From positions 640,444 to 672,443 of the forward strand of contig PQXB01000001.1 of NCBI GenBank assembly GCA_003194425.1: a stretch of DNA of 32,000 bases. The letters are read 5' to 3'. The position numbers were made by a program, and so were the translations under genes. The first letter of the stretch is position 1. Each line of letters opens with the position of its first letter. Of this stretch, positions 1-30,413 are shown piece after piece. This DNA comes from Candidatus Methanophagaceae archaeon. GTDB taxonomy: Archaea; Halobacteriota; Syntropharchaeia; Alkanophagales; Methanospirareceae. Below the pieces are notes generated by a model. That model did not search any database. It was not told the DNA's origin and was given only the letters and a program-made list of their open reading frames with translations.

Positions 1-647
1 GCGAAATTCCGCGTGAGAGCTTCTACCCCGTCCCTTTCGTTGTTCCTGTCTCGCGTTTTGTGGAGGCGTGGAAGGGCGTGCCGCAGTTGGAACTCTCGGT
101 TCACCCGCACTGCGGTGCAGCGACTTACGTCTTCGTTGAGGACGGGCGGTTCAAGCCGATAACCGAGTTCCTGGATGTTGAGGGTTTTATGGAATTCCTG
201 AAAGAAAGAGCGGACGAGATGAGCAGCAGCGGGTCGAAGGTGAGCAAATCAGGAGTGGACAAATCAAGAGTGGACAAATCAAGAGTGGACAAATCAAGAG
301 AGGGCAAATCAAGAGTGGGTAAAATAAAAGCAGTGGCAGGGCTGGTCTCGGCGTTAAGGAAATTTGTGGACAAGGCGAAGATGCCAGAGGGCGTTGACCC
401 TTTAGGTCTGCTTGCAGGTGTGCTGAAAATAGGGAGTCGGGAGGCTCTTGCAGAGTTTCACCGCAAAGCCCTCTTCATCGGTGCAATGCACTTTCAGGAC
501 GCCTACAACTTCGACTTGGAGCGTGTCAAGCGCTGTGGAATCCACTACGCCACGCCCGACCGCCGAATAATTCCGTTCTGCTCTTACAACGCAATTCACC
601 GACCCGCAGTGGAGAAGGCTTTTTCTGTGCCTTTAAACTTTAAATAA
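1..647 (+). CDS. C-terminal part of a radical-SAM-associated protein (COG1964 / tetraether-lipid-synthase-like C-terminal region); the 5' end lies outside the window
   Basis: Frame 3 is open from nt 3 to the TAA at 645-647. The track ORF 60..647 starts only at an internal GTG. The tail looks conserved: HPHCG ... MHFQDAYNFDLERVKRCGIHYATPDRRIIPFCSYN. The family was assigned from memory of this motif and was not searched. Confidence 0.55.
   Translation, partial: EIPRESFYPVPFVVPVSRFVEAWKGVPQLELSVHPHCGAATYVFVEDGRFKPITEFLDVEGFMEFLKERADEMSSSGSKVSKSGVDKSRVDKSRVDKSREGKSRVGKIKAVAGLVSALRKFVDKAKMPEGVDPLGLLAGVLKIGSREALAEFHRKALFIGAMHFQDAYNFDLERVKRCGIHYATPDRRIIPFCSYNAIHRPAVEKAFSVPLNFK
246..320 (+). repeat. 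5 x 15-bp in-frame tandem repeat encoding (K-S-x-V/E-D/G)n
   Basis: Units aaatcaggagtggac / aaatcaagagtggac (x2) / aaatcaagagagggc / aaatcaagagtgggt are contiguous. Confidence 0.95.
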
Positions 648-697
648 AAGAAGAGCGAAAGTAAAAATGCCCTTTTCGAAGAGTAGCGTGACTTGGT

Positions 698-777
698 GAA
701 CGCGAACGGCGAACGCGACGACGAACGCGAGCGACGAACCGCGAACGACGAACGCGAGCGACGAACCGCGAACGACG
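698..777. repeat. Non-coding GC-rich tandem repeat: a 27-mer repeated twice, preceded by a degenerate copy
   Basis: nt 721-747 and 748-774 are identical (acgaacgcgagcgacgaaccgcgaacg). nt 698-720 is a degenerate copy. The sub-unit is about 13 nt, GAAC(C)GCGA..CGAC. No credible ORF covers it. Confidence 0.9.
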
Positions 778-924
778 GAGGATGAACGCTGCAGCAAACA
801 AAGGGCGACAAACGCCGTATTGTACGGTCCCTGCGGTACGCTTCTCTTAAAAACGGCAATGACCGTAGCGGCAACCACAATACGGCACAAATATTTTAGG
901 GGCAGTTAAATACGGAGAAAAGGA

Positions 925-1374
925 ATGAGTGAAGAAATAGAGCGGATAAAGGAGCGGAAGATGCGGGAAATGGAAGAGGAAATGAAAGCAAGGGTAGAAG
1001 GGGAAAAGGGGAAAAAGGGACTGCGAGGGCAGAGGCAAGGGCAGGGTCCTAAAATCGACCACACGTTGACGCTGACTGACAACAGTTTTGTAGAGACGGT
1101 GCGGAAATATCCGCTGATTGTCGTGGACTGCTGGGCGCCCTGGTGCGGTCCCTGCAAAATGGTTGCACCAGTGTTAGAGGAGTTGGCGAAGGAGTACGCG
1201 GGCAGGGTGGTCTTTGGGAAGTTGAACGTGGACGAGAACCCGAGAGTGGCGACTGAATTTGGGATAATGGCGATTCCAACGCTCTTTATTTTTAAGAACG
1301 GCGAGCCTGTGGATGTCATTCAGGGAGCGTTACCGAAGCAGCATTTGGAAGCCCGCGTAAAAGAGTGGCTGTAA
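925..1374 (+). CDS. trxA: Thioredoxin with a roughly 45-aa charged N-terminal extension
   Basis: The WAPWCGPCK active site and a thioredoxin-fold C-terminal region are present. The N-terminus is E/K/R/G-rich and low complexity. Confidence 0.9.
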   Translation: MSEEIERIKERKMREMEEEMKARVEGEKGKKGLRGQRQGQGPKIDHTLTLTDNSFVETVRKYPLIVVDCWAPWCGPCKMVAPVLEELAKEYAGRVVFGKLNVDENPRVATEFGIMAIPTLFIFKNGEPVDVIQGALPKQHLEARVKEWL

Positions 1375-1479: not shown

Positions 1480-3069
1480 ATGCAGAGGGGAATAGAAATA
1501 GTGCGGAGGTTTGCGGATTTTGGATTTCAAGTCCAGCCAGAAGCGGTTGAACAAGTCTCTGAACTGCTGAGTCAGCAGTCCGACGCGGAAGCCGAGAGTC
1601 TGTTTGACCTCAACAAAATCGTAGAAGGCGTGAGTAGTTCGTTGGACCCCTCGGTCTTCGTGATTTCTAGCGAGCAGGTAGCCGAATTTCTGAAGAACAA
1701 CGGAACTGCTGCTGCCGCCGCTGACGCAGTGGTAGAGGCGCCGGAAATAATTAAGTCGTTCTCGGACGACGGAAAAGGGGTGGAGCAGAAGGATTTCTTA
1801 CCGCACTTCCTTGACCGCTACGAGCGGCTGAGCAGGCTGATAAAACGAAGGCTGAACTGCGGGCAGATAAAGTCTTTGAAACTGGGTCAGGGCAGAGAGC
1901 GGGGCAGAGGTCAGGGGTGGAGGGACGAGGAGGTCTCGGTAGTGGGAATGGTCTCCTCGGTGAACCGAACTGCGAAAGGAAACCTCCGCGTAGAATTAGA
2001 AGACCCTACAGGGCGTCTCCCAGTAATTCTGCAGCCTCAAGAGGAGGTAATTCCTGACGAAATAATCGGCGTTGCCGGTTCGTTCTCGTCTGACGGCGGA
2101 TTTCTCTTTGCGAGCCGAGTAGTGCGTCCTGATGTGCCTCTGCTTTCTCCTTCTGCGACCTCGCAGTCGGCGGCGTCTCTCAAATCCAAGCCACTCTACG
2201 CGGTCTTTATTTCGGATTTGCACGTGGGCAGCAAGACATTCTTGGAAGAGTCTTGGAACAGCTTCGTGCAGTGGTTGAGAGCGGAGGCGAAGAAAATGGG
2301 GATTGCGTACTTGGTCGTCGCGGGCGACCTCGTGGACGGAATAGGCGTCTACCCGGGTCAGGAGGAAGATTTGTCAATTTTGGACATCGAGGAGCAGTAC
2401 AAAACGGTGGCGGGGTATTTTCACGACCTGCCCTCGCATTTGCACGTTGTGGTCTCGCCTGGAAATCACGACGCGGTCCGCGGTGCCGAGCCACAACCGC
2501 CTCTGCCCGCCGACCTTCAGAGACTCTTCCCGAAGAACACCTCCTTCGTGAGCAGTCCTGCGTACGTAAAACTCGGCGGTAGCAGCAACGGCGGTAGCAG
2601 CAACGGAGGGAACAGCAACGGAGGGAACAGCAACGGCGGTAGCAGCAACGGAGGGAGCAGCAGCAACGGGGGGCAGTGTAGCAGGCTTGTCCTGATTTAC
2701 CACGGGCAGTCGTACGACGATTTTATCAACTCGGTCTCGCGGCTGAGTTACTCAAAGCCCGAGGAGGTGATGCAGGAAATGCTGAGGCGGCGGCACGTCG
2801 CCCCAATTTACGGTCGCTCGGTCTCGGTCGTCCCCGACGGGCAGGACTGCGAGGTAATTGACCTAGTTCCGGATATTTTTCACTGCGGGCACACGCACAC
2901 CGTCGGAGTCTCGAAATACCGAAATGTGCTGCTCATAAATTCCGGGACTTGGCAGTCGCAGACGCCGTACCAAGAGAAGAGGGACATTAAACCTGTGCCG
3001 GGCTGTGCAACGCTCGTGGAGCTGCGTGAAATGAAGGCGAGGGTGCTGGATTTTGAAAAATGCAGCTGA
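1480..3069 (+). CDS. polB: DNA polymerase II (PolD) small subunit DP1
   Basis: Calcineurin-like phosphoesterase motifs are present: ISDLHVGS, VAGDLVDG, PGNHD, HCGHTH. An OB-fold-like middle region is also present. Size is about 529 aa including a (GGSSN)n insert. Confidence 0.9.
   Translation: MQRGIEIVRRFADFGFQVQPEAVEQVSELLSQQSDAEAESLFDLNKIVEGVSSSLDPSVFVISSEQVAEFLKNNGTAAAAADAVVEAPEIIKSFSDDGKGVEQKDFLPHFLDRYERLSRLIKRRLNCGQIKSLKLGQGRERGRGQGWRDEEVSVVGMVSSVNRTAKGNLRVELEDPTGRLPVILQPQEEVIPDEIIGVAGSFSSDGGFLFASRVVRPDVPLLSPSATSQSAASLKSKPLYAVFISDLHVGSKTFLEESWNSFVQWLRAEAKKMGIAYLVVAGDLVDGIGVYPGQEEDLSILDIEEQYKTVAGYFHDLPSHLHVVVSPGNHDAVRGAEPQPPLPADLQRLFPKNTSFVSSPAYVKLGGSSNGGSSNGGNSNGGNSNGGSSNGGSSSNGGQCSRLVLIYHGQSYDDFINSVSRLSYSKPEEVMQEMLRRRHVAPIYGRSVSVVPDGQDCEVIDLVPDIFHCGHTHTVGVSKYRNVLLINSGTWQSQTPYQEKRDIKPVPGCATLVELREMKARVLDFEKCS
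2575..2667 (+). repeat. 6 x 15-bp (last unit 18-bp) in-frame tandem repeat encoding (G-G-S/N-S-N)n inside PolD DP1
   Basis: Units ggcggtagcagcaac x2, ggagggaacagcaac x2, ggcggtagcagcaac, ggagggagcagcagcaac. Confidence 0.95.
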
Positions 3070-4052
3070 AGAAAAAGACAAACAGAGAAACAAGAAAAAG
3101 GGAAAAAGGGAGAGGACTGAGGCTCTTTGCAGTGCGAAAGGTTCTAGGAGTGCGTGGCTGGCTGTGGGAGCGGGTTTACGGTGAGTACGAGCGGTTGCTG
3201 GAGAAGGAGATCCGGGGACAGGGGAAACCCCTGCCCGAGCACGTGGCGGTGATTATGGACGGAAACAGGCGGTACGCGCGGAAAATCGGGATTTCTACCG
3301 AAGAGGGCTACCTCTACGGCGCGGGGATAACCGAGCGTGTGATTGAGTGGTGCTTTGAGGTTGGGGTGAAGCAGCTCACGATTTACGCGTTCTCAATCGA
3401 GAACTTTTCAAGGTCGGACGAGGAGAAAGAGCGGCTGTTTGCGTTGATGCGGACCGAGTTCGAGAAAATAAGCCGAGACGAGCGAGTGCATAAAAACGGC
3501 GTGCAGGTGCGGGCGATCGGAAACCCCAGTCTGCTGCCGGACTCGGTGAGAGCCGCGATAAAAACCGCAGAAGACGCAACCAAGCAGTACGAGAAGTTCA
3601 GGCTCTTCATCGCCCTCGCCTACAGCGGGCGGATGGAAATTGTGGATTCAGTTCGAATAATCGCGAACCTTGTGAAACGAGGCGTGCTCTCCGCGGAAGG
3701 TGTAAATGAGGAGACGGTCTCTCGGCATTTGTACATCAGCGAGATACAGAACGGGTCTTCTACGTCGGCGCAGCCAGCACAGCCAGTGCAGCCAGTGCAG
3801 CCAGCACAGCAGAAAGGGGCGAAAGCCGCGGTGGACTTGATAATTCGAACCGGCGGCGAGCAGCGGCTGAGCAATTTCGTGCCTTGGCAGGCGTTGGGCA
3901 ACGAGTGTGCGGCTTACTTCTGCGCCCCGTTCTGGCCCGAGTTCCGAAAAATCGACCTTCTCCGAGCGGTGAGAACCTACCAAGAGCGGGAGGAGGAGAA
4001 ACGGAAACGCACCGCCTCGAGAACGCTAAAATTAATCAAAACCTTTTCCTAA
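3060..4052 (+). CDS. uppS: Undecaprenyl-diphosphate synthase (cis-prenyltransferase, archaeal UppS)
   Basis: Motifs HVAVIMDGNRRYA and DLIIRTGGEQRLSNF are present. The start is uncertain: ATG 3060 overlaps the polB stop by 10 nt, and the conserved region starts near aa 40. Confidence 0.88.
   Translation: MQLKKKTNRETRKREKGRGLRLFAVRKVLGVRGWLWERVYGEYERLLEKEIRGQGKPLPEHVAVIMDGNRRYARKIGISTEEGYLYGAGITERVIEWCFEVGVKQLTIYAFSIENFSRSDEEKERLFALMRTEFEKISRDERVHKNGVQVRAIGNPSLLPDSVRAAIKTAEDATKQYEKFRLFIALAYSGRMEIVDSVRIIANLVKRGVLSAEGVNEETVSRHLYISEIQNGSSTSAQPAQPVQPVQPAQQKGAKAAVDLIIRTGGEQRLSNFVPWQALGNECAAYFCAPFWPEFRKIDLLRAVRTYQEREEEKRKRTASRTLKLIKTFS
3771..3812 (+). repeat. 4 x 9-bp in-frame repeat encoding (A/V-Q-P)n in UppS
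   Basis: cagccagca cagccagtg cagccagtg cagccagca cagcag, immediately upstream of the conserved DLIIRTGGE block. Confidence 0.9.
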
Positions 4053-4758: not shown

Positions 4759-4881
4759 TGAATAGAAAATGTGGTAGGATTATTTATCTTTTAAGGATAA
4801 GATAAAAACGGGCGGAAGGAAAGAAGGAAAGAAGGAAAGAAGGAAAAATGAAGGAAAAATGAAAACAAGAAGAGAAATCCT

Positions 4882-5145: not shown

Positions 5146-6480
5146 ATGAAAACCGTAAAAAAGCTCAAGCCGCTCGCGGCGGTCGTAGGCGCGGGTCGGA
5201 CGAAGTTCGGCGAACTGTGGTACAAGAACCCTGAGGAACTGCTGACTGAGGCGGGGATTCGGGCGGTGGAGTCGGTTGAACACGGGCTGAGGCGTAGAGA
5301 TATTCAAGCGTGCTACTTCGGCAGTTTCCTCTACCAAGTAACGAACAAGCTTGCACTCGTTCCGGGATATATGTCGCGGGAACTGGGGCTGAACATTCCG
5401 ATGAGCAACACCGAGGCAGCCTGCGGGTCGGGTGGCTCGGCACTCTACAACGCCTGCCTCGGCGTCAGGTCAGGGGCGTTCGAGGTCGCTCTGGTGGGGG
5501 GGTTCGAGAAAATGACAGACAGGTCGGACAAGATAATTGACGACTTAATGTTTGCGGCAGACCCGCACGAGTTCGACGCGGGCTTCACCTTCGCAGGTCT
5601 CTACGCGACGATGATGACGAGGTACATTCACGATTTCGGGGACGGGAGGGGGAAGAGCGGCGGGAACGGCAACGGGAAAGGCAGCAGCAACGGTAAATGC
5701 CGCGAAGCCCTCGCACTCGTCGCGTGCAAGAACCACCACCACGCGGTAGGCAACGAGTACGCACAGTTCAGAAAAGAGATTTCGGTGGAGGCGGTTCTCG
5801 GGTCGCCGCTGGTCGCGGACCCGATTCGGATGCTGCACTGCTCGCCGGTTTCAGACGGCGCGGTGGCACTTGTAGTAGTCCGCCCCGAGGTGGCGAAGAA
5901 CTACACCGACACGCCCGTCTACATCGTGGGAAGCCAGCAGGCAACCGACGACGTCTCAATCTGCAGCCGCGAGAGCCTCACGGGTGTCAAGGCGACACGG
6001 CTGGCAACTCAGAAGGTCTTGGCGGAGACGGGGCTGACGATGGCGGACATTCAGGTCGCCGAGGTTCACGACTGCTTCACTATCGAGGAAATCTTCTTCT
6101 TGGAAGACTCGGGGTTCTGCGAGCGGGGAGAAGGCTGGAAAGTCGTTTACGAGAGCTGCGCGTCGTCCTCGTCGTCCTCGTCGTCCTTCAAGGGCTTGAG
6201 GCACATTCCTTACCGAAATGCAGGAAACAACGAGCTTGTGGTCAACGCAGGCGGCGGCTTGAAAGCAGACGGCCACCCGGTTGGGGCTACAGGGGTCAGG
6301 CAGGCTTACGAGTGCTTCAAGCAACTGCGGGGCGAGGCAGGCGGGAACCAAGTTGAAGTTGAGGAAGGCGGAGGAGGGGGGCTCAACACGGCTTTGTGCC
6401 ACAACATCGGAGGGACAGGCGGAATCGCTACGGTTCATATTTTAGTGCGGGAGTTAGAAGTTAGAGGAAAGAATTTTTAA
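5146..6480 (+). CDS. Thiolase-family protein (archaeal acetyl-CoA acetyltransferase / SCP-x-type thiolase)
   Basis: Active-site Cys context NTEAACGSGGSA is present, with C-terminal motifs GGGLKADGHPVGATG and CHNIGGTGG. The protein carries G/N-rich and poly-Ser inserts. Confidence 0.85.
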   Translation: MKTVKKLKPLAAVVGAGRTKFGELWYKNPEELLTEAGIRAVESVEHGLRRRDIQACYFGSFLYQVTNKLALVPGYMSRELGLNIPMSNTEAACGSGGSALYNACLGVRSGAFEVALVGGFEKMTDRSDKIIDDLMFAADPHEFDAGFTFAGLYATMMTRYIHDFGDGRGKSGGNGNGKGSSNGKCREALALVACKNHHHAVGNEYAQFRKEISVEAVLGSPLVADPIRMLHCSPVSDGAVALVVVRPEVAKNYTDTPVYIVGSQQATDDVSICSRESLTGVKATRLATQKVLAETGLTMADIQVAEVHDCFTIEEIFFLEDSGFCERGEGWKVVYESCASSSSSSSSFKGLRHIPYRNAGNNELVVNAGGGLKADGHPVGATGVRQAYECFKQLRGEAGGNQVEVEEGGGGGLNTALCHNIGGTGGIATVHILVRELEVRGKNF

Positions 6481-7542
6481 ATGAGAAGAATAGCGTTTTA
6501 CGGCAAGGGAGGGGTGGGGAAATCCACAGTCGGCACGAACATCGCAGCGGCGCTGGCAGAGCAGGGCCTCTCGGTGCTGGTGATTGGCTGCGACCCGAAG
6601 CACGACTGCACGAGAAACCTGCGAGGCGAGGTTGAAATTCCGACAATTCTCGACTTGTCGCGAGAGAAAGGCATCGAGCGGCTTGGTCTTGAGGGGCTCG
6701 TCGGCGAGGCAGGAGGAGCAGGAGGAGCAGGAGGAGCAGGAGGAGCAGGAGGAGCAGGAGGAGCAGAGGGAGGGAGCAGGGTCAGGCTCGACGAGGTCGT
6801 CTACAAGGGTTACAGGGGCGTCTTTTGCGCGGAGTGTGGCGGTCCGAGGCCGGGAATTGGCTGCGCTGGGAGGGGAGTCATCGTTGCGATCGAACTTCTT
6901 AAGCGGCTGAACGCGTTTGAGGAGTTGGAGCCGAAGCCGGAGGTGGTGATTTACGATGTGCCGGGGGATGTGGTCTGCGGCGGGTTTGCGATGCCGCTGC
7001 GGGGCAGTCTGGCCGACGAGGTTTTTGTCGTAACCTCCGCAGACTACCTCGCCCTCTACGCCGCAAACAACATCTGCCGCGGGATAAAAGAGTTCGCATC
7101 CAAAGGCGGAACTCCGTTGGGTGGCTTCGTCTACAATGTCAGGGGCGTGCTTGACGACGAGGCGGTGGTTCGCGGGTTTGCTGAACGGGTCGGGTCGCAG
7201 GTTCTTGGCTGCATTCCCAACGCACACCAAATCGCCGAAGCCGAAATTGAGGGCAGGACTGTGATTGAACACGCACCCGAGAGCGAGGTTGCCGACCTGT
7301 TCCGTGAGTTGGCGCTGCGGCTCTACAACAGCAGGGAAGTCTCTGTTCCCGAGCCGCTGCCCGCAGACGAAATGGTTAGGGTCGGGCAGGAAATCAGGAA
7401 GAGGGCGAGAGAGCGGTCGAGCGAGCGGTCGAGAGAGCGGTCGAGCGAGCGGTCGAGAGAGCGGACGAGAGAGCGGTCGAGCGAGCGGTCGAGCGGGAAG
7501 TGGCAGGACGAAAAAAGCGGAAAAAAATCGAAAATTATTTAA
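6481..7542 (+). CDS. NifH/BchL-family ATPase Fe-S protein (NflH-like; candidate CfbC)
   Basis: P-loop GKGGVGKST is present, together with the cluster cysteines in CAGRG and DVVCGGFAMP. The ATG directly follows the thiolase TAA. The gene carries two tandem-repeat inserts. Confidence 0.85.
   Translation: MRRIAFYGKGGVGKSTVGTNIAAALAEQGLSVLVIGCDPKHDCTRNLRGEVEIPTILDLSREKGIERLGLEGLVGEAGGAGGAGGAGGAGGAGGAEGGSRVRLDEVVYKGYRGVFCAECGGPRPGIGCAGRGVIVAIELLKRLNAFEELEPKPEVVIYDVPGDVVCGGFAMPLRGSLADEVFVVTSADYLALYAANNICRGIKEFASKGGTPLGGFVYNVRGVLDDEAVVRGFAERVGSQVLGCIPNAHQIAEAEIEGRTVIEHAPESEVADLFRELALRLYNSREVSVPEPLPADEMVRVGQEIRKRARERSSERSRERSSERSRERTRERSSERSSGKWQDEKSGKKSKII
6709..6771 (+). repeat. 7 x 9-bp in-frame repeat (gcaggagga) encoding (A-G-G)n in the NifH-like protein
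   Basis: Six perfect units plus one variant (gcagaggga). Confidence 0.95.
7411..7494 (+). repeat. 7 x 12-bp in-frame repeat encoding (E-R-S/T-S/R)n at the C-terminus of the NifH-like protein
   Basis: Units gagcggtcgagc and gagcggtcgaga alternate; one unit is gagcggacgaga. Confidence 0.95.
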
Positions 7543-7576
7543 GGCGTTTGCTCTGTTTAGACTACAAAAAAACAGG

Positions 7577-8023
7577 GTGAGAAAATTGACAAAAGAGGAA
7601 AAGAAAGCGGTAGAAGGAGTGGAGGGTGTGGCTGTCGTTTTGATCGGGCACGGTAGCAAGCTGCCGTACAGTAAGGAGGTGTTGGAGGAGTTTGGAAGGG
7701 GAGTTGAGAAGCGGGGGCTGTTTAAAGCGGTGAAAGTGGCTTTTATGCAGTTGAACTCGCCGAGCATTGAGGAGGCGTTGCGAGGTCTTGCCGAAAGCGG
7801 ACTGAAAAATATTGTGGCACTGCCGGTCTTTTTGGCGGACGGAGCGCACACGACCGAGGACATTCCAGAGAAGTTGAAAGAAGCTTTCGAGGGCGAGTGG
7901 GCGGAGGTAGGAAAAGGCGTGAAACTGACTTACGCAAAGCCAATCGGAGCGGACGAGCGGGTCGTGGACATTCTGCTGGACCGAGCAAAAGAGGCGGTAG
8001 AAGAGAGTAGTGAGAAGGATTAA
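7577..8023 (+). CDS. cbiX: Small sirohydrochlorin chelatase, CbiX(S) type (Co or Ni chelatase; CfbA candidate)
   Basis: Motifs VVLIGHGS ... LPVFLADGAHT are present and the single-domain size is right. The track ORF 7265..8023 has an N-terminal part that overlaps the nifH-like gene and is repeat-derived. I place the start at in-frame GTG 7577; TTG 7586 is an alternative. Confidence 0.78.
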   Translation: MRKLTKEEKKAVEGVEGVAVVLIGHGSKLPYSKEVLEEFGRGVEKRGLFKAVKVAFMQLNSPSIEEALRGLAESGLKNIVALPVFLADGAHTTEDIPEKLKEAFEGEWAEVGKGVKLTYAKPIGADERVVDILLDRAKEAVEESSEKD

Positions 8024-8093: not shown

Positions 8094-9188
8094 GTGTCGT
8101 GGCTCGTTGCGAAACTGTTACTACTTTTTGTGCTGCTCCTTCTCTCCGGCTTCTTCTCCGGCTCGGAGACCGCGTTGGTTAGGATCGGGAAGGTAAAAGC
8201 GCGGGCGTTGCTGAAGCGCGGCGTGAAAGGGGCAGAGACGATTGACAAATTTGTGAGCGAGCCCGAGACGATGCTCACGACCGTTCTTATCGGGAACAAT
8301 GTCGTAAATATCGCAGCCTCGGCACTCGCGACTTCAATCGCGATTGACTTTTTTGGCAGTTACGGAGCGGCGGTTGCGACGGGCGTGATGACTTTTTTAA
8401 TTCTCACTTTCGCAGAAATAATGCCCAAGACGATTGCAGTGCACCACGCCGAGCGGATTTCGCTACTCATTTCAAAGCCGATGGGAATTTTGACTGCGGT
8501 CTTTCAGCCGCTCATAAAAGCCACTTCCCTGGTCACTGGTGCGGTTACCGCTGCTTTAGAGCGGCTTTTTGGCGTAAAACTCTCTCGGCAGAGGCGGTTA
8601 ATGACCGAGGAGGAGGTGGAGACGATGTTGGAGATTGGCGAGGAGGAGGGGGCGATTGAGGAGGACGAGAAGGAAATGATGAAGGGTGTGTTGAGGCTTG
8701 ATGAGGTAGTGGTAAAGAATGTAATGGTGCCGCGGGAGGAGATGGTTTGCCTGGAGGCCAGTCAGCCCGTGAGTGCAGCGTTGGAAATAATAAAGACCAG
8801 CGGCTACTCCAGAATTCCTGTTTTAGATTCAAATTTAACTCTTAATCTAAATCAGTATTTAAATCTAAATTTGAAGAGCTCAAAAGAGACAAGAGGCAAA
8901 GTTGTGGGCGTCTTGTACGCCAAGGATTTACTAATTCGGGTGGCTGGGAAGGGGGAGAGTGCGAAGGAACCGCTGAGAAAGTTTATGAAGACGCCTTATT
9001 TCGTGCCTGAGTCAAAGCGGGTGGACGACCTTCTCGCAGAGTTTCAGAAGGGCAAGTTCCACCTCGCGATTGTAGTAGACGAGGAGGGGAGGACGAAGGG
9101 TTTGGTAAGTTTGGAGGACCTTTTGGAGGTGATTGTGGGCAGTATTTATGACGAATACGACACGATAAAGACAAGAGAAAAACGATGA
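8094..9188 (+). CDS. CNNM/CorB-type membrane protein (DUF21 transmembrane domain plus CBS pair)
   Basis: The hydrophobic N-terminal DUF21-like region has four predicted TM segments, followed by two CBS-like modules (VMVPREEMV..., GLVSLEDLLE). GTG start. An AT-rich insert encodes SNLTLNLNQYLNLNLKSS. Confidence 0.8.
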   Translation: MSWLVAKLLLLFVLLLLSGFFSGSETALVRIGKVKARALLKRGVKGAETIDKFVSEPETMLTTVLIGNNVVNIAASALATSIAIDFFGSYGAAVATGVMTFLILTFAEIMPKTIAVHHAERISLLISKPMGILTAVFQPLIKATSLVTGAVTAALERLFGVKLSRQRRLMTEEEVETMLEIGEEEGAIEEDEKEMMKGVLRLDEVVVKNVMVPREEMVCLEASQPVSAALEIIKTSGYSRIPVLDSNLTLNLNQYLNLNLKSSKETRGKVVGVLYAKDLLIRVAGKGESAKEPLRKFMKTPYFVPESKRVDDLLAEFQKGKFHLAIVVDEEGRTKGLVSLEDLLEVIVGSIYDEYDTIKTREKR

Positions 9189-10474: not shown

Positions 10475-10488
10475 AAAAAGAGGAGTAA

Positions 10489-19905: not shown

Positions 19906-22629
19906 GTGAACGGCGGAGGTGAAGAACTGACAGTAGAAGTCTCGGTGCTTTACGACAATACAGCCGCGGGCGGGTCATCAGGGAACGCGCTCACGGGTTT
20001 GTGGAAGGACAGGTTCTCTGCCGCGGTAGACGGCGAGTTAATCGGAAGTCCGCGGAGTGTGACCGAAACCGCTGCCGGTCGCTACACCGTGAAATTCGAT
20101 CTCTGTGGGACGAGTCCAGGCACCTACACCTTGGCGTTGAATGTAGCAGACAATTTGAATCACAACTTCGCGGTTGACGACGAAACAATTCTTGTCCAAA
20201 ACAGCCTGCCGACTGCGGATTTCTACTTCTCGCCTTCGCTTCCTTTTGTGGGTGCAGTAGTGAGATTTGACGCTTCAAGTTCCGAAGATTTTGACGGTTC
20301 TATCGTCTCTTACGAGTGGGAGTTCGGTGATGAAAAAAAGGGAACAGGAGTGCTTGTAACACACTCGTACTCGGAGCCGGGTAGTTACGCGGTGTCTTTG
20401 AAGGTAACAGACGACGACGGCGCCACCGACAGAACAACAAAAACGATTGCGGTTAGCGAAGTTTCAAATGTTATTTATGTTCCTGATAACTACGCAACGA
20501 TTCGAGCCGCGGTGTACGCTGCAAATGCAGGGAACACAATCATCGTCCGCGATGGCACCTACACCGAGAATGTGAGGATAGGCAAGCGTTTAACCGTTAG
20601 GTCAGAGAACGGTTCTGAGAGAACGACTGTTCAAGCTTGGTCTTCAGACGACCATGTCTTTGAGGTTGCCGCGGATTTCGTGAACATCTCAGGATTCACT
20701 GTAGTCGGGACAACTGACTATGCTGCTGGAATACTCCTTAAATACACGGATTACTGTAATATCTCTAACAACAACTGCTCTTACAACTCTCGTGGCATTT
20801 ACCTCGAGTGGGGTTCAAACAACAACAGCGTCTCGAACAACACCTGCTCTTTCAACGAAGACTGCGGCATCTCCCTCTGGTTTTCACCCAACAACAGCAT
20901 CTCAGACAACACCTGCTCTTTCAACAACACCTGCTCTTTCAACGGCCTGGGTATCTTCTTGTATGGGTCAACCAACAACGACCTAACAAACAACAACTGC
21001 TCTTTCAACGAATACCGCGGCATCTCCCTCCACTCAACCAACAACACTTTAAGGAACAACCGAATGTCCTACAACCGCTACAACTTCGATGCCTGGGGCG
21101 GCGCCTGGGCCGTGGAGAACGATGTAGACACGAGCAACCTCGTTGACGGAAGACCGATTTACTACCTCATCGGCGCTTCCGACGCTGTTATCGATGCAGA
21201 GACAAATGCAGGCACGGTCTACTGCATTGACTGCGAGAATATAACTGTAAAAGACCTGACACTCACGAACAACAGCAAAGGCATCTATTTCTTTAACACC
21301 ACGAACTCAAGAATACAGAACAACAACTGCTCTTTCAACGGCTACGGCATCCAGCTCTACGACTCAGACAGCAACAGCATCTCTAACAACAACTGTTCTT
21401 ACAACTACTTTAGTGGCATCGTACTCTGGCGTTCAACCACCAACAGCATCGCCAACAACACCTGCTCTTACAACGAGCATGGTGATGGAATCTTGCTCTA
21501 CTATTCGGACGACAGCAGCATAACAAACAACACCTGCTCTTACAACGAGTATGGTGATGGCATCGTCCTCGAGGATTCAAAAGGCAACAGCATCGTCAAT
21601 AACACATGCTCTCACAACTACGACTATGGCATCGTCCTCGAGCGTTCAACCGGCAACAACATCTACCTGAACAATTTCATCAAAAACACAGTTAGTGCTC
21701 TTTCTTGGGGACGCAACACCTGGGACACACTCACAAAACAAACCTACAGCTACAAAGGAAAAACCTACACCAACTATTTAGGCAACTACTGGGACGACTA
21801 CGAGGGAAGCGACGCGGACGGAGACGGAATCGGTGAGACTGCTTACCGTATAGACTACGATGATAAAGACAAATATCCGTTGATGGAGCGGTGGGAGATT
21901 TACTTTGAAGAAGAGAACAAACCGCCGGTAGCGGAGTTCAGCTACTCGCCGGAGGAGCCGGAGGAAAAAGAGGAGGTGAGATTTAACGGCACTGCCTCTT
22001 ACGACGAAGACGGAGCGGTAGAGGGTTACGAGTGGGAGTTCGGGGACGGAGAGAGCGCGGCGGCAGGAGAAGAAGTGGCACACGCTTACCGCGCTGCGGG
22101 GAGCTACGAGGTGAATTTAACGGTAACAGACGAAGACGGAGCGAAGAACAGAACGGCAAAAGTAGTGAGGGTAAGAGAGGAAGCGAAGCCGACGGTCTCG
22201 ATTGCAACAGACAAGCGGGAGTACACCGCAGGCGAAGAGATGCAAATAAACCTAACGATTGCGAATCCGACGGAGGAGTGGCAGCCTGTTATTTTCGCCT
22301 GGTGCCTTGACCTGCCGGACTACCACTTTCAATACTGGCTAATGAAAGAATCGCTTTACCTGCCGCCAGGGTACGAGGAGAAGTTCGCGATTCCGCTTAA
22401 GGTCGGCGACTACGGGTTCGAGTTCAACGCATCGTGGTTCGTCGCTCTTTACAACACGACGACATTTGAGGTTATTTCGGAAGACACAGCGGACTGGCGG
22501 TTCATGTCAGGGACAGGTAAGACGGCGGAAGGAGAAAGGATGCCGGAAGCAAAAGAGATGGTAGAGGAAATGAAGAAGACAATAGAGACAAATTTGACGG
22601 TTCTCAGTGAGATTTTTGTAGAAGCATAG
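19906..22629 (+). CDS. Surface protein with PKD domain, NosD-like parallel beta-helix (PbH1) repeats, second PKD domain and an Ig-like C-terminal domain
   Basis: The PKD signatures are YEWEFGDEKKG...SYAVSLKVTDDDGATD and YEWEFGDGES...YEVNLTVTDEDGAKN. There are at least 12 NNxCSxNxxxGIxL repeats. It has no signal peptide of its own. Its frame is open upstream to 19807. Confidence 0.8.
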   Translation: MNGGGEELTVEVSVLYDNTAAGGSSGNALTGLWKDRFSAAVDGELIGSPRSVTETAAGRYTVKFDLCGTSPGTYTLALNVADNLNHNFAVDDETILVQNSLPTADFYFSPSLPFVGAVVRFDASSSEDFDGSIVSYEWEFGDEKKGTGVLVTHSYSEPGSYAVSLKVTDDDGATDRTTKTIAVSEVSNVIYVPDNYATIRAAVYAANAGNTIIVRDGTYTENVRIGKRLTVRSENGSERTTVQAWSSDDHVFEVAADFVNISGFTVVGTTDYAAGILLKYTDYCNISNNNCSYNSRGIYLEWGSNNNSVSNNTCSFNEDCGISLWFSPNNSISDNTCSFNNTCSFNGLGIFLYGSTNNDLTNNNCSFNEYRGISLHSTNNTLRNNRMSYNRYNFDAWGGAWAVENDVDTSNLVDGRPIYYLIGASDAVIDAETNAGTVYCIDCENITVKDLTLTNNSKGIYFFNTTNSRIQNNNCSFNGYGIQLYDSDSNSISNNNCSYNYFSGIVLWRSTTNSIANNTCSYNEHGDGILLYYSDDSSITNNTCSYNEYGDGIVLEDSKGNSIVNNTCSHNYDYGIVLERSTGNNIYLNNFIKNTVSALSWGRNTWDTLTKQTYSYKGKTYTNYLGNYWDDYEGSDADGDGIGETAYRIDYDDKDKYPLMERWEIYFEEENKPPVAEFSYSPEEPEEKEEVRFNGTASYDEDGAVEGYEWEFGDGESAAAGEEVAHAYRAAGSYEVNLTVTDEDGAKNRTAKVVRVREEAKPTVSIATDKREYTAGEEMQINLTIANPTEEWQPVIFAWCLDLPDYHFQYWLMKESLYLPPGYEEKFAIPLKVGDYGFEFNASWFVALYNTTTFEVISEDTADWRFMSGTGKTAEGERMPEAKEMVEEMKKTIETNLTVLSEIFVEA
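20716..21690 (+). repeat. Coding PbH1 (beta-helix) repeat array with DNA-level identity between units
   Basis: Recurrent strings aacaacaactgctctttcaacg and aacaacacctgctcttacaacga. There is an exact 18-bp tandem duplication aacacctgctctttcaac at 20908-20943. Confidence 0.85.
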
Positions 22630-22640
22630 GTTTTTCTTAT

Positions 22641-22658
22641 CTTTTCTAAAAAGAAAAG
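22641..22658 (+). terminator. A/T hairpin downstream of the surface-protein gene
   Basis: cttttct-aaaa-agaaaag, a 7-bp stem preceded by a tttttctt run. Confidence 0.4.
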
Positions 22659-26106: not shown

Positions 26107-26333
26107 TGCAACTATAATGTTGGTAACGCTATTTTTTTAACAATCCTCGTTATTTCGCCAGCTCAAAGAGAATCTCCCGCTGCCGCTTGTGATTTCAAAC
26201 TGACTGGGGTGAGTGCTTGTTAGAGATTTGCACGCCCTTGGCACGCCCTTGGAACAATTTTAACTCCGACGGCTTTACCAACGCCTCCGTAAAGAACTTC
26301 TCGCCCCTCCTCAGTTCTCTAACCCAACCAATC

Positions 26334-26378
26334 GAGCCCTTAATCTCCGAGCCCTTAATCTCCAAGCCCTTAATCTCT
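26334..26378 (-). repeat. 3 x 15-bp tandem repeat spanning the archaeosortase stop codon
   Basis: Plus strand reads gagcccttaatctcc x2 then aagcccttaatctct. On the gene strand each unit carries an in-frame TAA. Confidence 0.95.
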
Positions 26379-27296
26379 CCGCAGCCCGCAGCCGAGGCAC
26401 CTGCTGCAGACCGCGAGCAGAAGAAGAGCGACCGCGAAGAGCAGCAGGCTGGAGTAGTCGTGAAAGTACTGCATTGCCACTTCGCCGCCGTAGCGGTCCG
26501 CGATGAGAAGCAGTGCGACGAGCCGCGTAACATTTGCAAAGAGTGCGATCGGGAACGCTGCGGAGAAGAGAACCGCCTTTCTGTAAAAACTTGGCGGGCG
26601 GCATTTGAGGAGGTAAGCGAGGACTGCCGCCACAGCCAAGAGCGAAATGAGCGTGTGCATTCCGCTGCACGGCACACCGATTACAAAAACCTCCCCGCTG
26701 CCGAGTTGGATTTCCGCTCCTACTGTTTTGATTGGGACGCCCAGCGCTCCGAGAGCCAGCGAAGTGTAGCGGGCTGAGAAGGACTGGAGAAGGGTAGTAA
26801 CGCGGGGCAGGAAAGGTAGCGGAATTCCAAAGACGAGGAAGCAGACTGGGAAGAGGAGTGTCCGCATCGCCGCCGCTCCGCAGAAGTAGAGAACCAAGCC
26901 ACTTAAGACGAGCAGGAACGAGAGCGCCAAGCCAAACTGCGCCCTCCAGAAGAAGCAGACCGCGTAAACGAGCAAGCCCGCTGCGAGCACGAGCAGCCCG
27001 CCTCCTCCTCTTCCTCCTCCTCTTCCTCCTCCTCTTCCTCCTCTTCCTCCTCCTCCCTCGCCCGCTGTCCTAACCTTGAAGAGTTCGTCTCTCTTCGTCC
27101 AAGCGACGAACCCGGAGATTAGCGGGACAAGAAAACCGTGCGAGTACGCAGGGTCGCCCAGCCAAGCACCTGCCAGCCAAACGAAAGTGCGGTAGTAAAG
27201 AAGGAGAAGCAAAAGGAGGAGAAGCAAAATAAACAAAAGACTAACAACTAACACCGCACTTATGCAAGCCGATTTTGTCTCCCTCTTGGCTGACAT
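26370..27296 (-). CDS. Exosortase/archaeosortase-family (EpsH-type) transpeptidase
   Basis: It is polytopic, with the N-terminal YSHGFLVPL motif, the catalytic-type Cys in GVPCSGMHT, Arg in FANVTRL and a C-terminal His (FHDYSS). It has a poly-Leu stretch and a (G3-4R)n insert. Confidence 0.75.
   Translation of the reverse strand: MSAKRETKSACISAVLVVSLLFILLLLLLLLLLYYRTFVWLAGAWLGDPAYSHGFLVPLISGFVAWTKRDELFKVRTAGEGGGGRGGRGGGRGGGRGGGGLLVLAAGLLVYAVCFFWRAQFGLALSFLLVLSGLVLYFCGAAAMRTLLFPVCFLVFGIPLPFLPRVTTLLQSFSARYTSLALGALGVPIKTVGAEIQLGSGEVFVIGVPCSGMHTLISLLAVAAVLAYLLKCRPPSFYRKAVLFSAAFPIALFANVTRLVALLLIADRYGGEVAMQYFHDYSSLLLFAVALLLLAVCSRCLGCGLRRD
27001..27057 (-). repeat. About 4.5 x 12-bp repeat encoding GGGGRGGRGGGRGGGRGGGG in the archaeosortase
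   Basis: Plus strand reads cctcctcctctt x3, cctcctctt, cctcctcctccctcg. Confidence 0.9.
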
Positions 27297-28210: not shown

Positions 28211-28244
28211 TTTTGCACCTCTTTCTAATTTCCAATTTACAAAA

Positions 28245-29615
28245 GTGAACGAGAAGACTAAAAGGTTTGTGCGGCGGAAATTTGGCGAGTACTACGAGAG
28301 AGCAGGGGTAAGAGGAAAGGAGAAGGAAAAGGACAAGGAGAAGGAAAAGGACAAGGTCAAGGTCCCGAGGGATTTCTGGAGGAGGGAGTGGGGCTTTGTT
28401 CTTTTTGACTCGCATTTTCCTGCGAGGCTCGTGATGAGGCGGCACAAAGCCTTCGCCACCCGCGAGGAGTTGGCGAACTACCTCAGGCGGAACGCCCCTG
28501 CCCACGCCTACTACTCGACCGCACTCTACAAAAATCCCGCAGCGGCGAAAATGTCGGACAAAGGCTGGCTTGGGGCGGACTTGATTTTTGACCTTGACGC
28601 CGACCACCTCGTGAGCGAGGCAGAGCTTCCGAAATTCTCTTACGAGGACTTGCTGAGGCTCGTGAAGAGAGAGACAGAGAAACTGCTTGATTTTTTGGTC
28701 AGCGATTTTGGATTTCGCGAGGAGGAGGTAGAACTGGTCTTTTCAGGCTCACGGGGCTACCACCTGCACGTCAGGTCCGACGAGGTGCGGGGGCTTGGGA
28801 GCCGTGAGCGGCGGGAGATCGTGGATTATGTGGGGGCGACTGGGCTGGAGATTGACAGATTTCTGGAGAATCGGACGGTTAGTGGCGGAGAATTTAGAAG
28901 TGGTGAAGAGCTCAGGAGGTGCCGCTACTGCAACAAAATCACGAGGAGGCTTGCGTGCCCCGTTTGCGGAAGGGAGACCGCGATTTTAACTTCGAAAGGA
29001 AGAGGGAGAGGAGGCAGTCTGAGAATCTCAAACCTTGACGGGTGGGGCAAGCGGCTTCTCAGAGGCTTGACTGAGTTTCTTCACGAAATCGCGGGGCAGG
29101 GGGAAGAGGAGAGTCTGAAGGAGCTAAAAAGCGTACTTGGGGTCGGGGAGGGAGACGGGGTTGGAGAGGGAGAAAAGCGGGTGAGGGAAATGTTGAAAAT
29201 CGCGAAGGACGAGGCAGCGGTTGAAAGAATTGGCAGGGGGCTGCTTGACCAAATTCCAGGATTTTCCAAGTCTGTTTGGCGAGAGATTCTGTCTAAAGTA
29301 GCGGTGCGTTTGGAGAAGAGCGAATCCGACGCTCCTGTTACCGCGGACACGAAGCGGCTAATTCGACTGCCCGGCTCGCTGCACGGGAAATCGAGTTTGG
29401 TAGTGGAGCCGCTGGGAATTGCGGAACTCAAGGATTTTGAGCCTTTGGAGGACGCGGTTGCGTTCGGGGGTTCGCCGGTTGAGGTGAGGGCTCTTCGCAA
29501 GGCGGCGGTAAAAATGAAGGGGGAGCGGTACGAAGTGAAGGAGGGCGAGGTTGCGGTGGTGCCTGAGTGTGCGGCACTTTATTTTTTCTGCAGAGGTGCT
29601 GCGGAAATTCTTTAA
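28245..29615 (+). CDS. priS: DNA primase small (catalytic) subunit PriS
   Basis: Catalytic motifs LIFDLDADH and SGSRGYHLHV are present, plus a Zn knuckle CRYC...CPVC. The start is uncertain. Track ORF 28152 would overlap the hisG start; in-frame GTG 28245 or GTG 28269 are more likely. Confidence 0.85.
   Translation: MNEKTKRFVRRKFGEYYERAGVRGKEKEKDKEKEKDKVKVPRDFWRREWGFVLFDSHFPARLVMRRHKAFATREELANYLRRNAPAHAYYSTALYKNPAAAKMSDKGWLGADLIFDLDADHLVSEAELPKFSYEDLLRLVKRETEKLLDFLVSDFGFREEEVELVFSGSRGYHLHVRSDEVRGLGSRERREIVDYVGATGLEIDRFLENRTVSGGEFRSGEELRRCRYCNKITRRLACPVCGRETAILTSKGRGRGGSLRISNLDGWGKRLLRGLTEFLHEIAGQGEEESLKELKSVLGVGEGDGVGEGEKRVREMLKIAKDEAAVERIGRGLLDQIPGFSKSVWREILSKVAVRLEKSESDAPVTADTKRLIRLPGSLHGKSSLVVEPLGIAELKDFEPLEDAVAFGGSPVEVRALRKAAVKMKGERYEVKEGEVAVVPECAALYFFCRGAAEIL
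28317..28364 (+). repeat. 2 x 18-bp plus 2 x 6-bp repeat encoding KEKEKDKEKEKDKVKV in PriS
   Basis: aaggagaaggaaaaggac x2, then aaggtc x2. Confidence 0.95.
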
Positions 29616-29657
29616 AATTATTTCTTTTGTAAGGTTTACTTTTGTAAAGAAAAGTTT

Positions 29658-30413
29658 ATGGACACCGAGCGGCTCTGGGAGATTTTGTACAAGGAGAGGA
29701 ACACGGCGACACTGCAGGAATTGCCACGAAACTTCTGCGCGGAAGTGCGTGAATATTTAAAGAGGTTGGAAGAGGAACGAAGGGAAGCAGAGCGAGGGGA
29801 AACAGAGCGAGGGGAAGCAGAGCGAGAGAACGCGGACGAAAGGCGGCGAGGGCTCGTGGAAGACGAGCTGAGGAATGCTAGGATGAAAGTGGAGGACATA
29901 ATTCGGAGACGCGTAGGAAAAATAGTGAAGCTCGCTAGTTCGGGCGTGAGCGTTAGGACGCCGTCTAAAGGAATGTTAGAGGAAGAGAGAGCGATTTTTG
30001 AGGGGGTGAAGAGCCACGTAGAAGCGGGCAGAGAGCGGATTTTTGCGTTAATTTCGGGCGCTGGGGGAGGGGAAGAGGAGGTAAAAAGAGGCGGAAAAAA
30101 GAGAGAAGCGGCAGAAGTAGCAAGTCCTGAAGTAGCAAGCCCTGACCCTCCCACAAGAGACAAAAAAGGGAAAAAAGACGAAGAAGAGAGTGAAGAAGAG
30201 AGTAAGGAAGAGTTTCAGGTAGTTCGAGCGTTAGAAGACCTGCCCACTTTTATGGGCATTGACGGCAGGATTTATAAAGTGAAAAAAGAAGATGTTCTTA
30301 CGCTGCCCAAGACCAACGCTGAAATATTGTGCAACCGCGGAGTCGCAGTGCGGTTGAGAGGAAGGGGGAGGGTAGAAAGAAAAGGAGAAACAGAAACAAA
30401 AACAGAAAAATGA
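29658..30413 (+). CDS. GINS complex subunit, Gins51 (Gins15) type
   Basis: The N-terminal A-domain pattern is LWEILYKER...[19 protein letters not shown]. The C-terminal B-domain is [37 protein letters not shown]. The position directly after priS is a known conserved linkage. It carries three repeat inserts. Confidence 0.7.
29784..29828 (+). repeat. 3 x 15-bp repeat encoding (E-A/T-E-R-G/E)3 in GINS
   Basis: gaagcagagcgaggg gaaacagagcgaggg gaagcagagcgagag. Further repeats occur at 30114-30143 (2 x 15 bp, EVASP) and 30180-30203 (2 x 12 bp, EEES). Confidence 0.95.

Follow-up and report, generated by a model that had tools for sequence, protein, structure and literature searches.

Variable in-frame tandem repeats in core genes of a chromosomal region of an ANME-1 archaeon

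Low-complexity inserts in Plasmodium falciparum are found across much of the proteome and are thought to be born by slippage. Their presence in housekeeping proteins is treated in two papers (PMC3140889, PMC3749963). For prokaryotes, it has been reported that low-complexity regions (LCRs) arise via the proliferation of short repeats, mainly by replication slippage, and that housekeeping and essential families in archaea and bacteria are mostly without LCRs (Persi et al. 2023, PMC10120016). In a survey of short tandem repeats across the tree of life, archaea ranked lowest in density. The amino-acid tandem repeats (aaTRs) of Borgs, which are extrachromosomal elements of Methanoperedens, were described by Schoelmerich et al. 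2023 (PMC9879509); tandem repeats were given there as 0.62% of Borgs and at most 0.01% of the host Methanoperedens, being virtually absent from the host chromosome. Here we describe short in-frame tandem repeat arrays in the core genes of a 32,000-nucleotide stretch of DNA (contig PQXB01000001.1, positions 640,444 to 672,443; this whole stretch is called the window below) from the GB37/ex4572-4 lineage of the anaerobic methanotrophic archaea of group 1 (ANME-1).

Arrays were called with Tandem Repeats Finder (TRF) and overlapping rows were merged, using a main cut-off score of at least 50 and a looser one of at least 39. At the main cut-off 28 arrays were found in the window (8.75 per 10 kb), of which 24 are coding, and the periods of all 24 coding arrays are divisible by 3 (9, 12, 15, 18, 21 and 24 bp, together with one native 72-bp period). 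A preliminary description of this DNA had claimed in-frame arrays with units of multiples of 3 in at least 17 of about 31 genes; the claim is borne out, as TRF called arrays at essentially every site named there, and array-bearing genes number 16 of 31 at the main cut-off and 18 of 31 at the looser one. PEPCK, aconitase, HisG, PorD and the ribosomal proteins, which had been described as free of repeats, gave nothing beyond chance-level two-copy matches in TRF. Intergenic DNA makes up 5.4% of the window and carries about three times the coding array density per bp, and the periods of intergenic and boundary arrays are unconstrained (11, 13, 14 and 19 besides 6, 15 and 27). The consensus units in the TRF table differ at every locus. 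The 72-bp array (21364–21663) falls within NosD/Beta_helix Pfam matches (aa 437–634) and was set apart from the phenomenon; every other array lies outside Pfam domains or interrupts them, and for these no folded repeat-domain family was matched.

To estimate the number of arrays expected by chance, codons were shuffled within each gene, which preserves codon usage and amino-acid composition. The shuffled sequences gave 3.4 ± 0.6 arrays at a score of at least 50, mostly in the unshuffled intergenic DNA, against the 28 observed, and chance is therefore excluded. For comparison with other genomes, 80 loci around the repeat-free PEPCK gene were taken from other ANME-1, Hadesarchaea, Methanocellaceae and bacteria. 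Roughly 70 of these reach 6 kb or more in length; among them the array density per 10 kb has a median of 0 and peaks at about 4. Perfect repeats with at least 3 copies and at least 50 nt occupy 0.18% of the window versus 0.06% of 1.04 Mb of control sequence, and for any perfect repeat with at least 3 copies the values are 0.84% and 0.11%. High GC was considered as a sufficient cause and rejected, since four comparators with 54–56% GC (L035, L059, L062, L077) have 0–0.7 arrays per 10 kb.

By exact-protein look-ups, 19 loci of the same lineage were obtained from independent assemblies (MEGAHIT, SPAdes, JGI, Logan). These strain-level relatives carry 10–11 arrays per 10 kb. They also allow both flanks of the window to be read, where the density is 11 per 10 kb over 9.1 kb upstream and 8 per 10 kb over 10 kb downstream. 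The high density thus extends over about 51 kb or more, and probably over the whole genome. The upstream part of one relative, L091, contains a 9-bp array of 15.6 copies and a perfect 21-bp array of 4 copies.

The arrays differ in length between nearly identical strains. Nucleotide identity to the window, with gaps counted over long aligned segments, is about 97–99% in the ten loci tested; synonymous divergence from the window is 0.8–2.0% in six strains tested, and the substitution-only difference between the window and L091 is 0.93%. Across the 19 loci, 20 of 33 coding arrays are length-polymorphic, and each of the 45 non-zero length differences seen in coding DNA is divisible by 3, as opposed to 3 of 18 intergenic ones (e.g., −11, −5, −2, +1, +8, +13 bp). 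Most coding changes amount to one or more units (9, 12, 15, 18, 21 or 24 bp). In base-level alignments, coding indels were located almost exclusively inside arrays and involved whole units (NifH-like −9, −18, −12 and −24; mevalonate kinase (Mvk) −12; HisRS −12; aldolase −21; Prs +9 and +12), and further array indels were seen in ProA (−24), archaeosortase (−3, −33), GINS (+15) and NosD (−18). The archaeosortase (GGGR)n array has six alleles in 11 genomes (0, −3, −9, −15, −21 and −33 bp), and PolD DP1 proteins from seven assemblies are 99–100% identical apart from (RGQ[A/G])1–3 and (GGSSN)2–6. Between L091 and the window there are 15 indels, 14 of which lie in or at arrays. One of them, in the PolD DP1 linker, adds 48 bp as four extra 12-bp units at a site where the copies in the window are too few for a TRF call, which shows that arrays are being born. 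The preliminary description had called the expansions recent or ongoing, and copy number does differ among assemblies at about 1% substitution divergence where this was measured. Beyond the right end of the window, at about 15–18.7 kb of L092–L097, Pus10 (469/473 aa) and a ThrRS-like protein (672/678/680 aa) are length-variable among strains too. The arrays of the window are as follows (position, strand, feature; alleles are relative to the window).

245–318, plus strand: (KSRVD)n, 15 bp × 4.9, C-terminal part of the radical-SAM protein (Zn_ribbon_HMPTM/Radical_SAM); TRF score 127; −15 bp in L091
698–777, no strand: intergenic, period 13/27, about 3 copies; TRF score 132; −27 bp in L091
1894–1923, plus strand: proto-array (RGQ[G/A]), PolD DP1 linker before the OB fold; 1–3 or more copies among strains; +48 bp in L091
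2581–2662, plus strand: (GGSSN)n, 15 bp × 5.5, PolD DP1 phosphodiesterase domain; TRF score 122; 2–6 copies among seven assemblies
3771–3810, plus strand: (QP[A/V])n, 9 bp × 4.4, UppS (cis-prenyltransferase); called by TRF; +9 bp allele
4815–4877, no strand: intergenic, purine-rich GAAGGAAA, period 8/19; called by TRF; +39 bp in L091
5661–5683, plus strand: 12 bp × 1.9, thiolase GNGNGKG insert; TRF score 39
6161–6187, plus strand: poly-Ser, perfect 9 bp × 3, thiolase, a pyrimidine-rich exception; TRF score 54
6709–6766, plus strand: (AGG)n, perfect 9 bp × 6.4, NifH-like; TRF score 116; alleles −18, −9, +15 bp
7406–7493, plus strand: (RERS/SERS)n, 12 bp × 7.3, NifH-like C-terminal tail; TRF score 148; alleles −24, +12 bp
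9343–9372, plus strand: (EGKAS)2, perfect 15 bp × 2, ThrC N-terminal extension; TRF score 60
10310–10344, plus strand: (GEIEE/K), 15 bp × 2.3, ThrC; called by TRF
10704–10744, plus strand: (GEK/GEE)n, 9 bp × 4.6, mevalonate kinase; TRF score 68; +9 bp allele
10983–11026, plus strand: (DLEA/T)n, 12 bp × 3.7, mevalonate kinase; TRF score 74; −12 bp alleles
12426–12473, plus strand: (SGSA)n, 12 bp × 4, HisRS insertion domain; TRF score 82; −12 bp in L082
13325–13368, minus strand: (EAGEEEG)2, 21 bp × 2.1, class II aldolase; TRF score 81; −21 bp allele; sense purine 0.91
13709–13735, no strand: intergenic (AAAAAG)n upstream of Prs; called by TRF; alleles −11, −5, +1 bp, none a multiple of 3
13961–13985, plus strand: GGA-type (GGGEGGGGE), Prs N-domain loop; called by TRF; alleles +9, +12 bp
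14232–14281, plus strand: acidic, 15 bp × 3.3, Prs inter-domain linker; TRF score 65
17555–17577, plus strand: (GEGGGGEG), 9 bp × 2.7, PorG; TRF score 32 (weak)
20906–20943, plus strand: (NTCSFN), perfect 18 bp × 2.1, NosD/PKD surface protein; TRF score 76; −18 bp in L084
23623–23696, plus strand: (GDGE/GDGK/EKGK)n, 12/24-bp arrays, ProA; TRF scores 64–76; alleles −24, −36 bp among 11 strains
26230–26377, no strand: two intergenic arrays (11 bp × 2.1; 15 bp × 3) in the aconitase–archaeosortase gap; alleles −11 bp; −2, +3, +8, +13 bp
27001–27056, minus strand: (GGGR)n, 12 bp × 4.7, archaeosortase loop, all-purine sense strand; TRF score 98
27197–27229, minus strand: poly-Leu, 15 bp × 2.2, near the archaeosortase hydrophobic N-terminus, a pyrimidine-rich exception; TRF score 59; no length variation in 10 strains
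28313–28362, plus strand: (KEKEKD)n, 18 bp × 2.5–2.8, PriS N-terminal extension; TRF score 81; alleles +18, +36 bp
29139–29173, plus strand: (GVGEGD)2, 18 bp × 1.9, PriS; TRF score 56
29778–29826, plus strand: (RGEAE)n, 15 bp × 3.3, GINS51; TRF score 84; alleles +15, +30 bp
30073–30212, plus strand: cluster of three arrays (13 bp; 15 bp (EVASP)2; 12 bp (EEES)n), GINS51; called by TRF; alleles +15, +15, −30 bp
30374–30408, plus strand: 6/18-bp array, GINS51 C-terminus; called by TRF; −6 bp allele

The three-array cluster of GINS51 lies upstream of the Pfam Gins51_C match (aa 188–232). Three replisome genes with polymorphic inserts stand in this one window, namely the PolD proofreading subunit DP1 (1480–3069), PriS (28245–29615) and GINS51 (29658–30413).

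Orthologues and solved structures were used to place the arrays within their proteins. Synteny around PEPCK in other ANME-1 reaches only AsnC-PEPCK-PorG-PorD and yielded no orthologues of the repeat-bearing genes, and these were taken from protein searches and alignments to the Protein Data Bank (PDB) instead. The NifH-like protein is 290–310 aa long in all other ANME-1 orthologues and 335–362 aa in this lineage; no other aligned sequence has any residues at the (AGG)n site, and (RERSSE)n, likewise without a counterpart in the orthologues, lengthens the C-terminal tail. None of the other DP1 orthologues examined (ANME-1, Alkanophaga, Syntropharchaeales, Methanoperedens, Methanohalophilus) has the 34-residue (GGSSN)n block or the (RGQ)n block; the length of the linker between the OB fold and the phosphodiesterase domain (OB-PDE linker) varies in all lineages. 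The PorG array, a weak case, is real, as it lies within an 11-residue lineage-specific insert missing from seven of the eight other ANME-1 PorG sequences shown, the eighth being gapped differently.

Ten comparisons with solved structures were made, and in them the arrays map to gaps or to unaligned segments. The NifH-like array is a gap against 9fmg_D, the best PDB match of this protein, and the array in the HisRS insertion domain is gapped against 1wu7_A. Against 1u9y_A, the loop array of Prs corresponds to a gap of about 6 residues and its linker array to about 24 residues between residues 153 and 157. The (GGSSN)n block of DP1 is placed between residues 405 and 407 of 6knb_A. For Mvk against 6mde_A, (DLEA/T)n is a 13-residue gap and the (GEK/GEE)n region is unaligned, and the ProA arrays are gapped against 1vlu_A. 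In PriS against 1zt2_A, (KEKEKD)n precedes residue 27 and (GVGEGD)2 lies in the unaligned query segment 202–361; in UppS about 26 residues are added between positions 202 and 207 of 6z1n_A. In ThrC against 2zsj_A, (EGKAS)2 precedes the aligned region and (GEIEE/K) is a 7-residue insertion, and thiolase shows insertions of 18 residues (GNGNGKG site) and 13 residues (poly-Ser) against 6esq_A. Together these alignments show the arrays to be lineage-specific insertions in loops, linkers or termini, and the worry that the same segments might be found elsewhere is not borne out by the orthologues of the NifH-like protein, DP1 and PorG.

Two of the proteins, the NifH-like protein and DP1, were modelled with AlphaFold2 using 51-sequence alignments. 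Their cores were confident, with a predicted template modelling score (pTM) of 0.75 for the NifH-like protein, and for DP1 a pTM of 0.78 and a mean predicted local distance difference test score (pLDDT) of 84. Residues 77–97 of the NifH-like protein were modelled as coil with pLDDT below 50 (27–43), and so were residues 370–397 of DP1 (pLDDT below 50), which bridge the adjacent beta-strands 361–365 and 402–407. The C-terminal array of the NifH-like protein was modelled as a low-confidence helical extension. In these two models, the arrays are predicted to encode disordered segments on well-folded cores. Because of the inserts, one Pfam domain may be matched as two separate stretches, e.g., in the NifH-like gene (6481–7542) and thiolase (5146–6480), and several precomputed annotations are without any Pfam match, e.g., HisRS, Prs and PriS in L081; the repeats thus degrade automated annotation.

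Outside the arrays, the pooled ratio of non-synonymous to synonymous polymorphism (pN/pS) between strains is 0.16–0.41 at a pS of about 0.8–2.0%, which indicates that the genes are functional and under purifying selection there. Within the arrays the amino-acid composition is strongly shifted. Codons for Gly (2.4-fold), Glu (2.1-fold) and Ser (1.9-fold), and also for Asn and Lys, are enriched; Tyr, Ile, Phe, Cys and Val are strongly depleted, and Trp and His are absent. The preliminary description had claimed most units to be purine-rich on the sense strand whatever the orientation of the gene. The sense-strand purine fraction is indeed 0.76 in arrays versus 0.57 in the gene background, with minus-strand genes included (aldolase 0.91, archaeosortase 1.0), so the bias does not simply track one DNA strand. 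There are three exceptions (thiolase poly-Ser, UppS QPA and archaeosortase poly-Leu), and most of the bias is a matter of amino-acid choice rather than an independent nucleotide signal: the array amino acids with background codon usage would yield a purine fraction of 0.71, i.e., about three quarters of the array purine excess is amino-acid choice. Sense-strand purine richness thus comes mainly from the way in which the tolerated amino acids are encoded. If every copy is included, purine endings are favoured in the Gly and Ala codons of the arrays (Gly GGR 82% vs 51%). When one unit per array is counted, the purine fraction at four-fold sites is 0.66 vs 0.57 (n = 65, p = 0.087), and by this count a nucleotide-level purine preference beyond amino-acid choice is not demonstrated. 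Unusual purine loading as a cause proper to the lineage was also rejected, because the purine fraction of its PEPCK (0.567) equals the mean of 79 orthologues (0.567 ± 0.010). GC at third codon positions (GC3) is 0.71 in the lineage versus about 0.45–0.50 in other ANME-1, which is a real difference.

The window belongs to the chromosome of the ANME-1 GB37/ex4572-4 lineage, almost certainly to that of GB37. It sits on a 1.19-Mb contig of an ANME-1 metagenome-assembled genome (MAG), whose proteins PXF514xx (locus tags C4B55_) include exact matches to PEPCK, DP1, Mvk and GINS of the window, and a PEPCK identical to that of the window is also present in 'ANME-1 cluster archaeon ex4572_4'. GB37 (PQXB01) comes from a 37 °C Guaymas Basin enrichment culture and has 1.53 Mb in 4 contigs, and Chadwick et al. 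placed ex4572-4 and GB37 in Methanophagaceae gen. nov. 3. One source label would make the lineage ANME-1c (Methanospirareceae); this identity is unsupported, as DP1 proteins so labelled are only 55–56% identical. The window contains the single-copy core genes HisRS, PolD DP1, PriS, GINS, L44e, S27e and eIF2a (Pfam) and shares the order AsnC-PEPCK-PorGD with other ANME-1 MAGs, both of which speak against an extrachromosomal element. The genes confirmed by Pfam are thioredoxin, PolD small subunit DP1, UppS, a B12-binding protein, thiolase, the NifH-like gene adjoining a CbiX-like gene, CNNM, ThrC, mevalonate kinase, HisRS, class II aldolase, Prs, AsnC, PEPCK, PorG/PorD, SAMP2, the NosD/PKD surface protein, ProA, aconitase, archaeosortase, HisG, PriS and GINS51, with L44e, S27e and eIF2-alpha at the right end. 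The partial open reading frame (ORF) at the left edge is the C-terminus of the radical-SAM protein, whose complete gene is visible in L091. Scans of the window for tRNA genes and Rfam families gave no matches. GC is 54% and GC3 about 0.7 in the window versus 42–46% and about 0.45–0.5 in the closest other ANME-1, and despite this shift the PEPCK protein is still 80% identical to the closest other ANME-1. This large compositional shift of the lineage coincides with the repeat phenomenon.

We favour, with a probability of about 0.7, the reading that the lineage has a genome-wide excess of short tandem duplication of the slippage type, on which a selective filter acts in genes. Short tandem duplications with units mostly of 6–27 bp would arise everywhere in the DNA of the lineage, and whole units would then be gained or lost at an unusually high rate, most likely through replication slippage or misaligned repair at microhomologies. 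Gain and loss of whole units is the signature of slippage. The filter is shown by the pattern: between genes any unit length and any length change survives, whereas within genes only frame-preserving units encoding flexible hydrophilic peptides (Gly, Glu, Ser, Lys, Asn) do so, and only at loops, inter-domain linkers or termini of conserved folds. As a result, about half of the housekeeping proteins would be extended by disordered segments encoded by variable-number in-frame repeats, and the remaining parts of each protein would stay under purifying selection. Yeast lacking rad27/FEN1 function shows a duplication mutator phenotype. Slippage in vitro by archaeal PolB and PolD has been reported (Castillo-Lizardo 2014, as cited in PMC9879509). 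Because of these two observations, a defect or peculiarity in lagging-strand/flap processing, or PolD itself, may be a reasonable suspect for the raised rate.

Several points weigh against this reading. Slippage, unequal recombination and a dedicated repeat-adding activity would leave similar patterns, and the excess-duplication account names no lineage-specific cause. As about 51 kb of the genome is covered, the genome-wide extent is an extrapolation. The pN/pS values are somewhat high, to which relaxed selection may contribute, or which may be the usual effect of short divergence. Function is possible for some arrays; several alleles are common to many strains and some arrays are monomorphic. 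It has accordingly to be considered that the loops are adaptive disordered regions, useful for solubility or as anti-aggregation 'bristles', as interaction motifs or for activity tuning, with copy number as the tuning knob. The strongly non-random composition (G/E/S/K/N) would fit, as would the presence of arrays in many proteins of one functional module (PolD DP1, PriS, GINS51) and the lack of variation of some arrays across at least 10 strains, and the Borg authors argue for function of the analogous aaTRs (PMC9879509). We nevertheless regard this as improbable, because the same process is seen, more densely and without frame constraint, in intergenic DNA, unit sequences are unrelated from locus to locus, close strains have many different alleles, the same enzymes lack inserts in all other ANME-1, and a tolerance filter alone would yield such a composition.

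A dedicated repeat-generating activity, such as a polymerase or integrase of a Borg-like or mobile element, or a process linked to transcription or R-loops on purine-rich sense strands, would account for the parallels with Borgs (frame kept in ORFs, unique units, fast turnover, coding-strand purine (A) bias, anaerobic methanotroph hosts). Most intergenic arrays, as we read their orientation, likewise show purine richness on the strand that carries the neighbouring gene, and the purine endings of Gly and Ala codons, all copies counted, point in the same direction. But the synonymous-site excess is not significant per unit, amino-acid choice supplies most of the purine excess, pyrimidine-rich arrays exist (thiolase poly-Ser, archaeosortase poly-Leu) and the window contains no candidate enzyme, all of which makes this activity very unlikely. 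That the arrays are short-read assembly artefacts, a danger the preliminary description had raised, or ordinary variable linkers common to other archaea, is contradicted by the data and has a negligible likelihood. Tandem repeats are a known source of assembly errors (PMC6868369), and some sites, e.g., the DP1 OB-PDE linker, are length-variable in all lineages. The arrays, however, recur at the same sites in 19 independently assembled loci, from several assemblers and various samples, and are only 25–90 bp long, which we judge to be shorter than typical short reads, and an assembly artefact is untenable for these reasons; in genes they are always frame-preserving, orthologues and solved homologues are without them, and comparison loci assembled likewise have almost none.

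Going beyond the excess-duplication reading favoured above, it may be speculated, though we think it rather unlikely, that the GB37 cell runs a Borg-like repeat-forming process chromosome-wide, continuously writing disordered segments into its replisome and core metabolism. If so, the arrays would reflect a lineage-specific change of replication or repair, or a repeat-adding activity common to anaerobic methanotrophs and their extrachromosomal elements, and not background slippage. The inserts in DP1, primase and GINS could then feed back on replication fidelity and on repeat formation itself.

Some further features of the window were observed. The NifH-like gene (6481–8023 region) is directly followed by a small CbiX/CbiK-type chelatase of 148 aa, and we take this pairing to suggest CfbC and CfbA of coenzyme F430 biosynthesis rather than nitrogenase. 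Two long antisense ORFs on the minus strand, 6454–7863 (469 aa) and 9146–10576 (476 aa), lie opposite the NifH-like gene and ThrC and have no Pfam matches; they probably result from the compositional skew of the sense strand and are not genes, and could be miscalled as such. The mechanically called PriS ORF begins at a TTG at 28152 and overlaps HisG, and the 456-aa product in other assemblies fits a start at 28245. A 4.3-kb two-gene cassette (18339–22650) is present in the window and in L084, and most strain-level relatives run from SAMP2 straight into ProA. It encodes two proteins, one of 506 aa, hydrophobic at its N-terminus and without a Pfam match, the other a NosD/beta-helix/PKD surface protein of 907 aa (629 and 783 aa in L084), and the cassette looks like a strain-variable surface-protein island. 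At 17792–17805, the 43-bp AT-rich spacer between PorG and PorD of 11 other strains is missing in the window and in L088, and in the window the PorG stop adjoins the PorD start. L082 and L095 have a 143-bp variant and a 227-aa PorG.

In-frame fast-evolving repeats, presented as a hallmark of Borgs, are thus found densely in essential enzymes of a cellular archaeal chromosome, with live copy-number polymorphism. They provide a natural experiment on how conserved folds tolerate loop insertions. The lineage is also a tractable system for studying how tandem-duplication rates are controlled in archaea with a PolD replisome, since a 37 °C enrichment culture has yielded it and sister lineages poor in arrays can serve for comparison. 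The arrays are ready strain markers, as variable-number tandem repeats (VNTRs), for population studies of ANME-1. Caution is needed with length filters for orthologues, domain calls by hidden Markov models and MAG polishing, all of which can be misled in this lineage.

The preliminary description knew of no general account of such a pattern in archaea. This stands for cellular archaea: no earlier account was found for ANME-1 or for the chromosomes of cellular archaea in a search that did not extend to subscription-only literature, the original GB37 genome paper among it, and the comparative ANME-1 papers and a 2026 paper on variable hotspots in ANME-1 do not mention such repeats. It does not stand for archaeal elements, as Borgs show the same kind of repeat (PMC9879509).

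In comparison with known systems, the likeness to Plasmodium drawn in the preliminary description holds for inserts that are lineage-specific, hydrophilic, length-polymorphic and located in surface loops of conserved housekeeping enzymes, not for an AT-driven Asn/Lys composition. In Plasmodium, a eukaryote, the genome is extremely AT-rich and the inserts are rich in Asn and Lys, whereas the DNA here has 54% GC, the inserts are rich in Gly, Glu, Ser and Lys, and a unit structure of 9–24 bp is still clear at the DNA level. The arrays resemble bacterial VNTRs and contingency loci in strain polymorphism and in gain and loss of whole units by slippage, the latter being suggested here by the pattern. 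Contingency loci, however, are frame-shifting or promoter repeats that switch surface or virulence genes; here the repeats preserve the frame in metabolic and replication genes, and no switching by frame-shift or promoter spacing was found, all 45 coding differences being multiples of 3 and the carriers being housekeeping genes. In contrast to the LCR pattern reported by Persi et al., housekeeping families are the main carriers here.

The resemblance to the aaTRs of Borgs extends to near-perfect tandem repeats at the nucleotide level, units divisible by 3 in ORFs but not between genes, locus-unique units, rapid change of copy number, coding-strand purine bias, encoded peptides that are disordered and avoid bulky or reactive residues, and a host that is an anaerobic methanotrophic archaeon. 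The differences are that the repeats described here lie on a cellular chromosome and not on a giant linear extrachromosomal element, that they affect core enzymes rather than mostly extracellular, membrane or hypothetical proteins, that the bias is towards G+A rather than A, and that the arrays appear shorter and less perfect. The 0.18% of the window in perfect repeats lies between the proportions reported for Borgs (0.62%) and for their host (at most 0.01%), with thresholds assumed to be Borg-like, so that this comparison is indicative only. Slippage-type formation of in-frame variable repeats that encode disordered segments is a known kind of process, and what is new is its pervasiveness in the core genes of a cellular archaeal chromosome.

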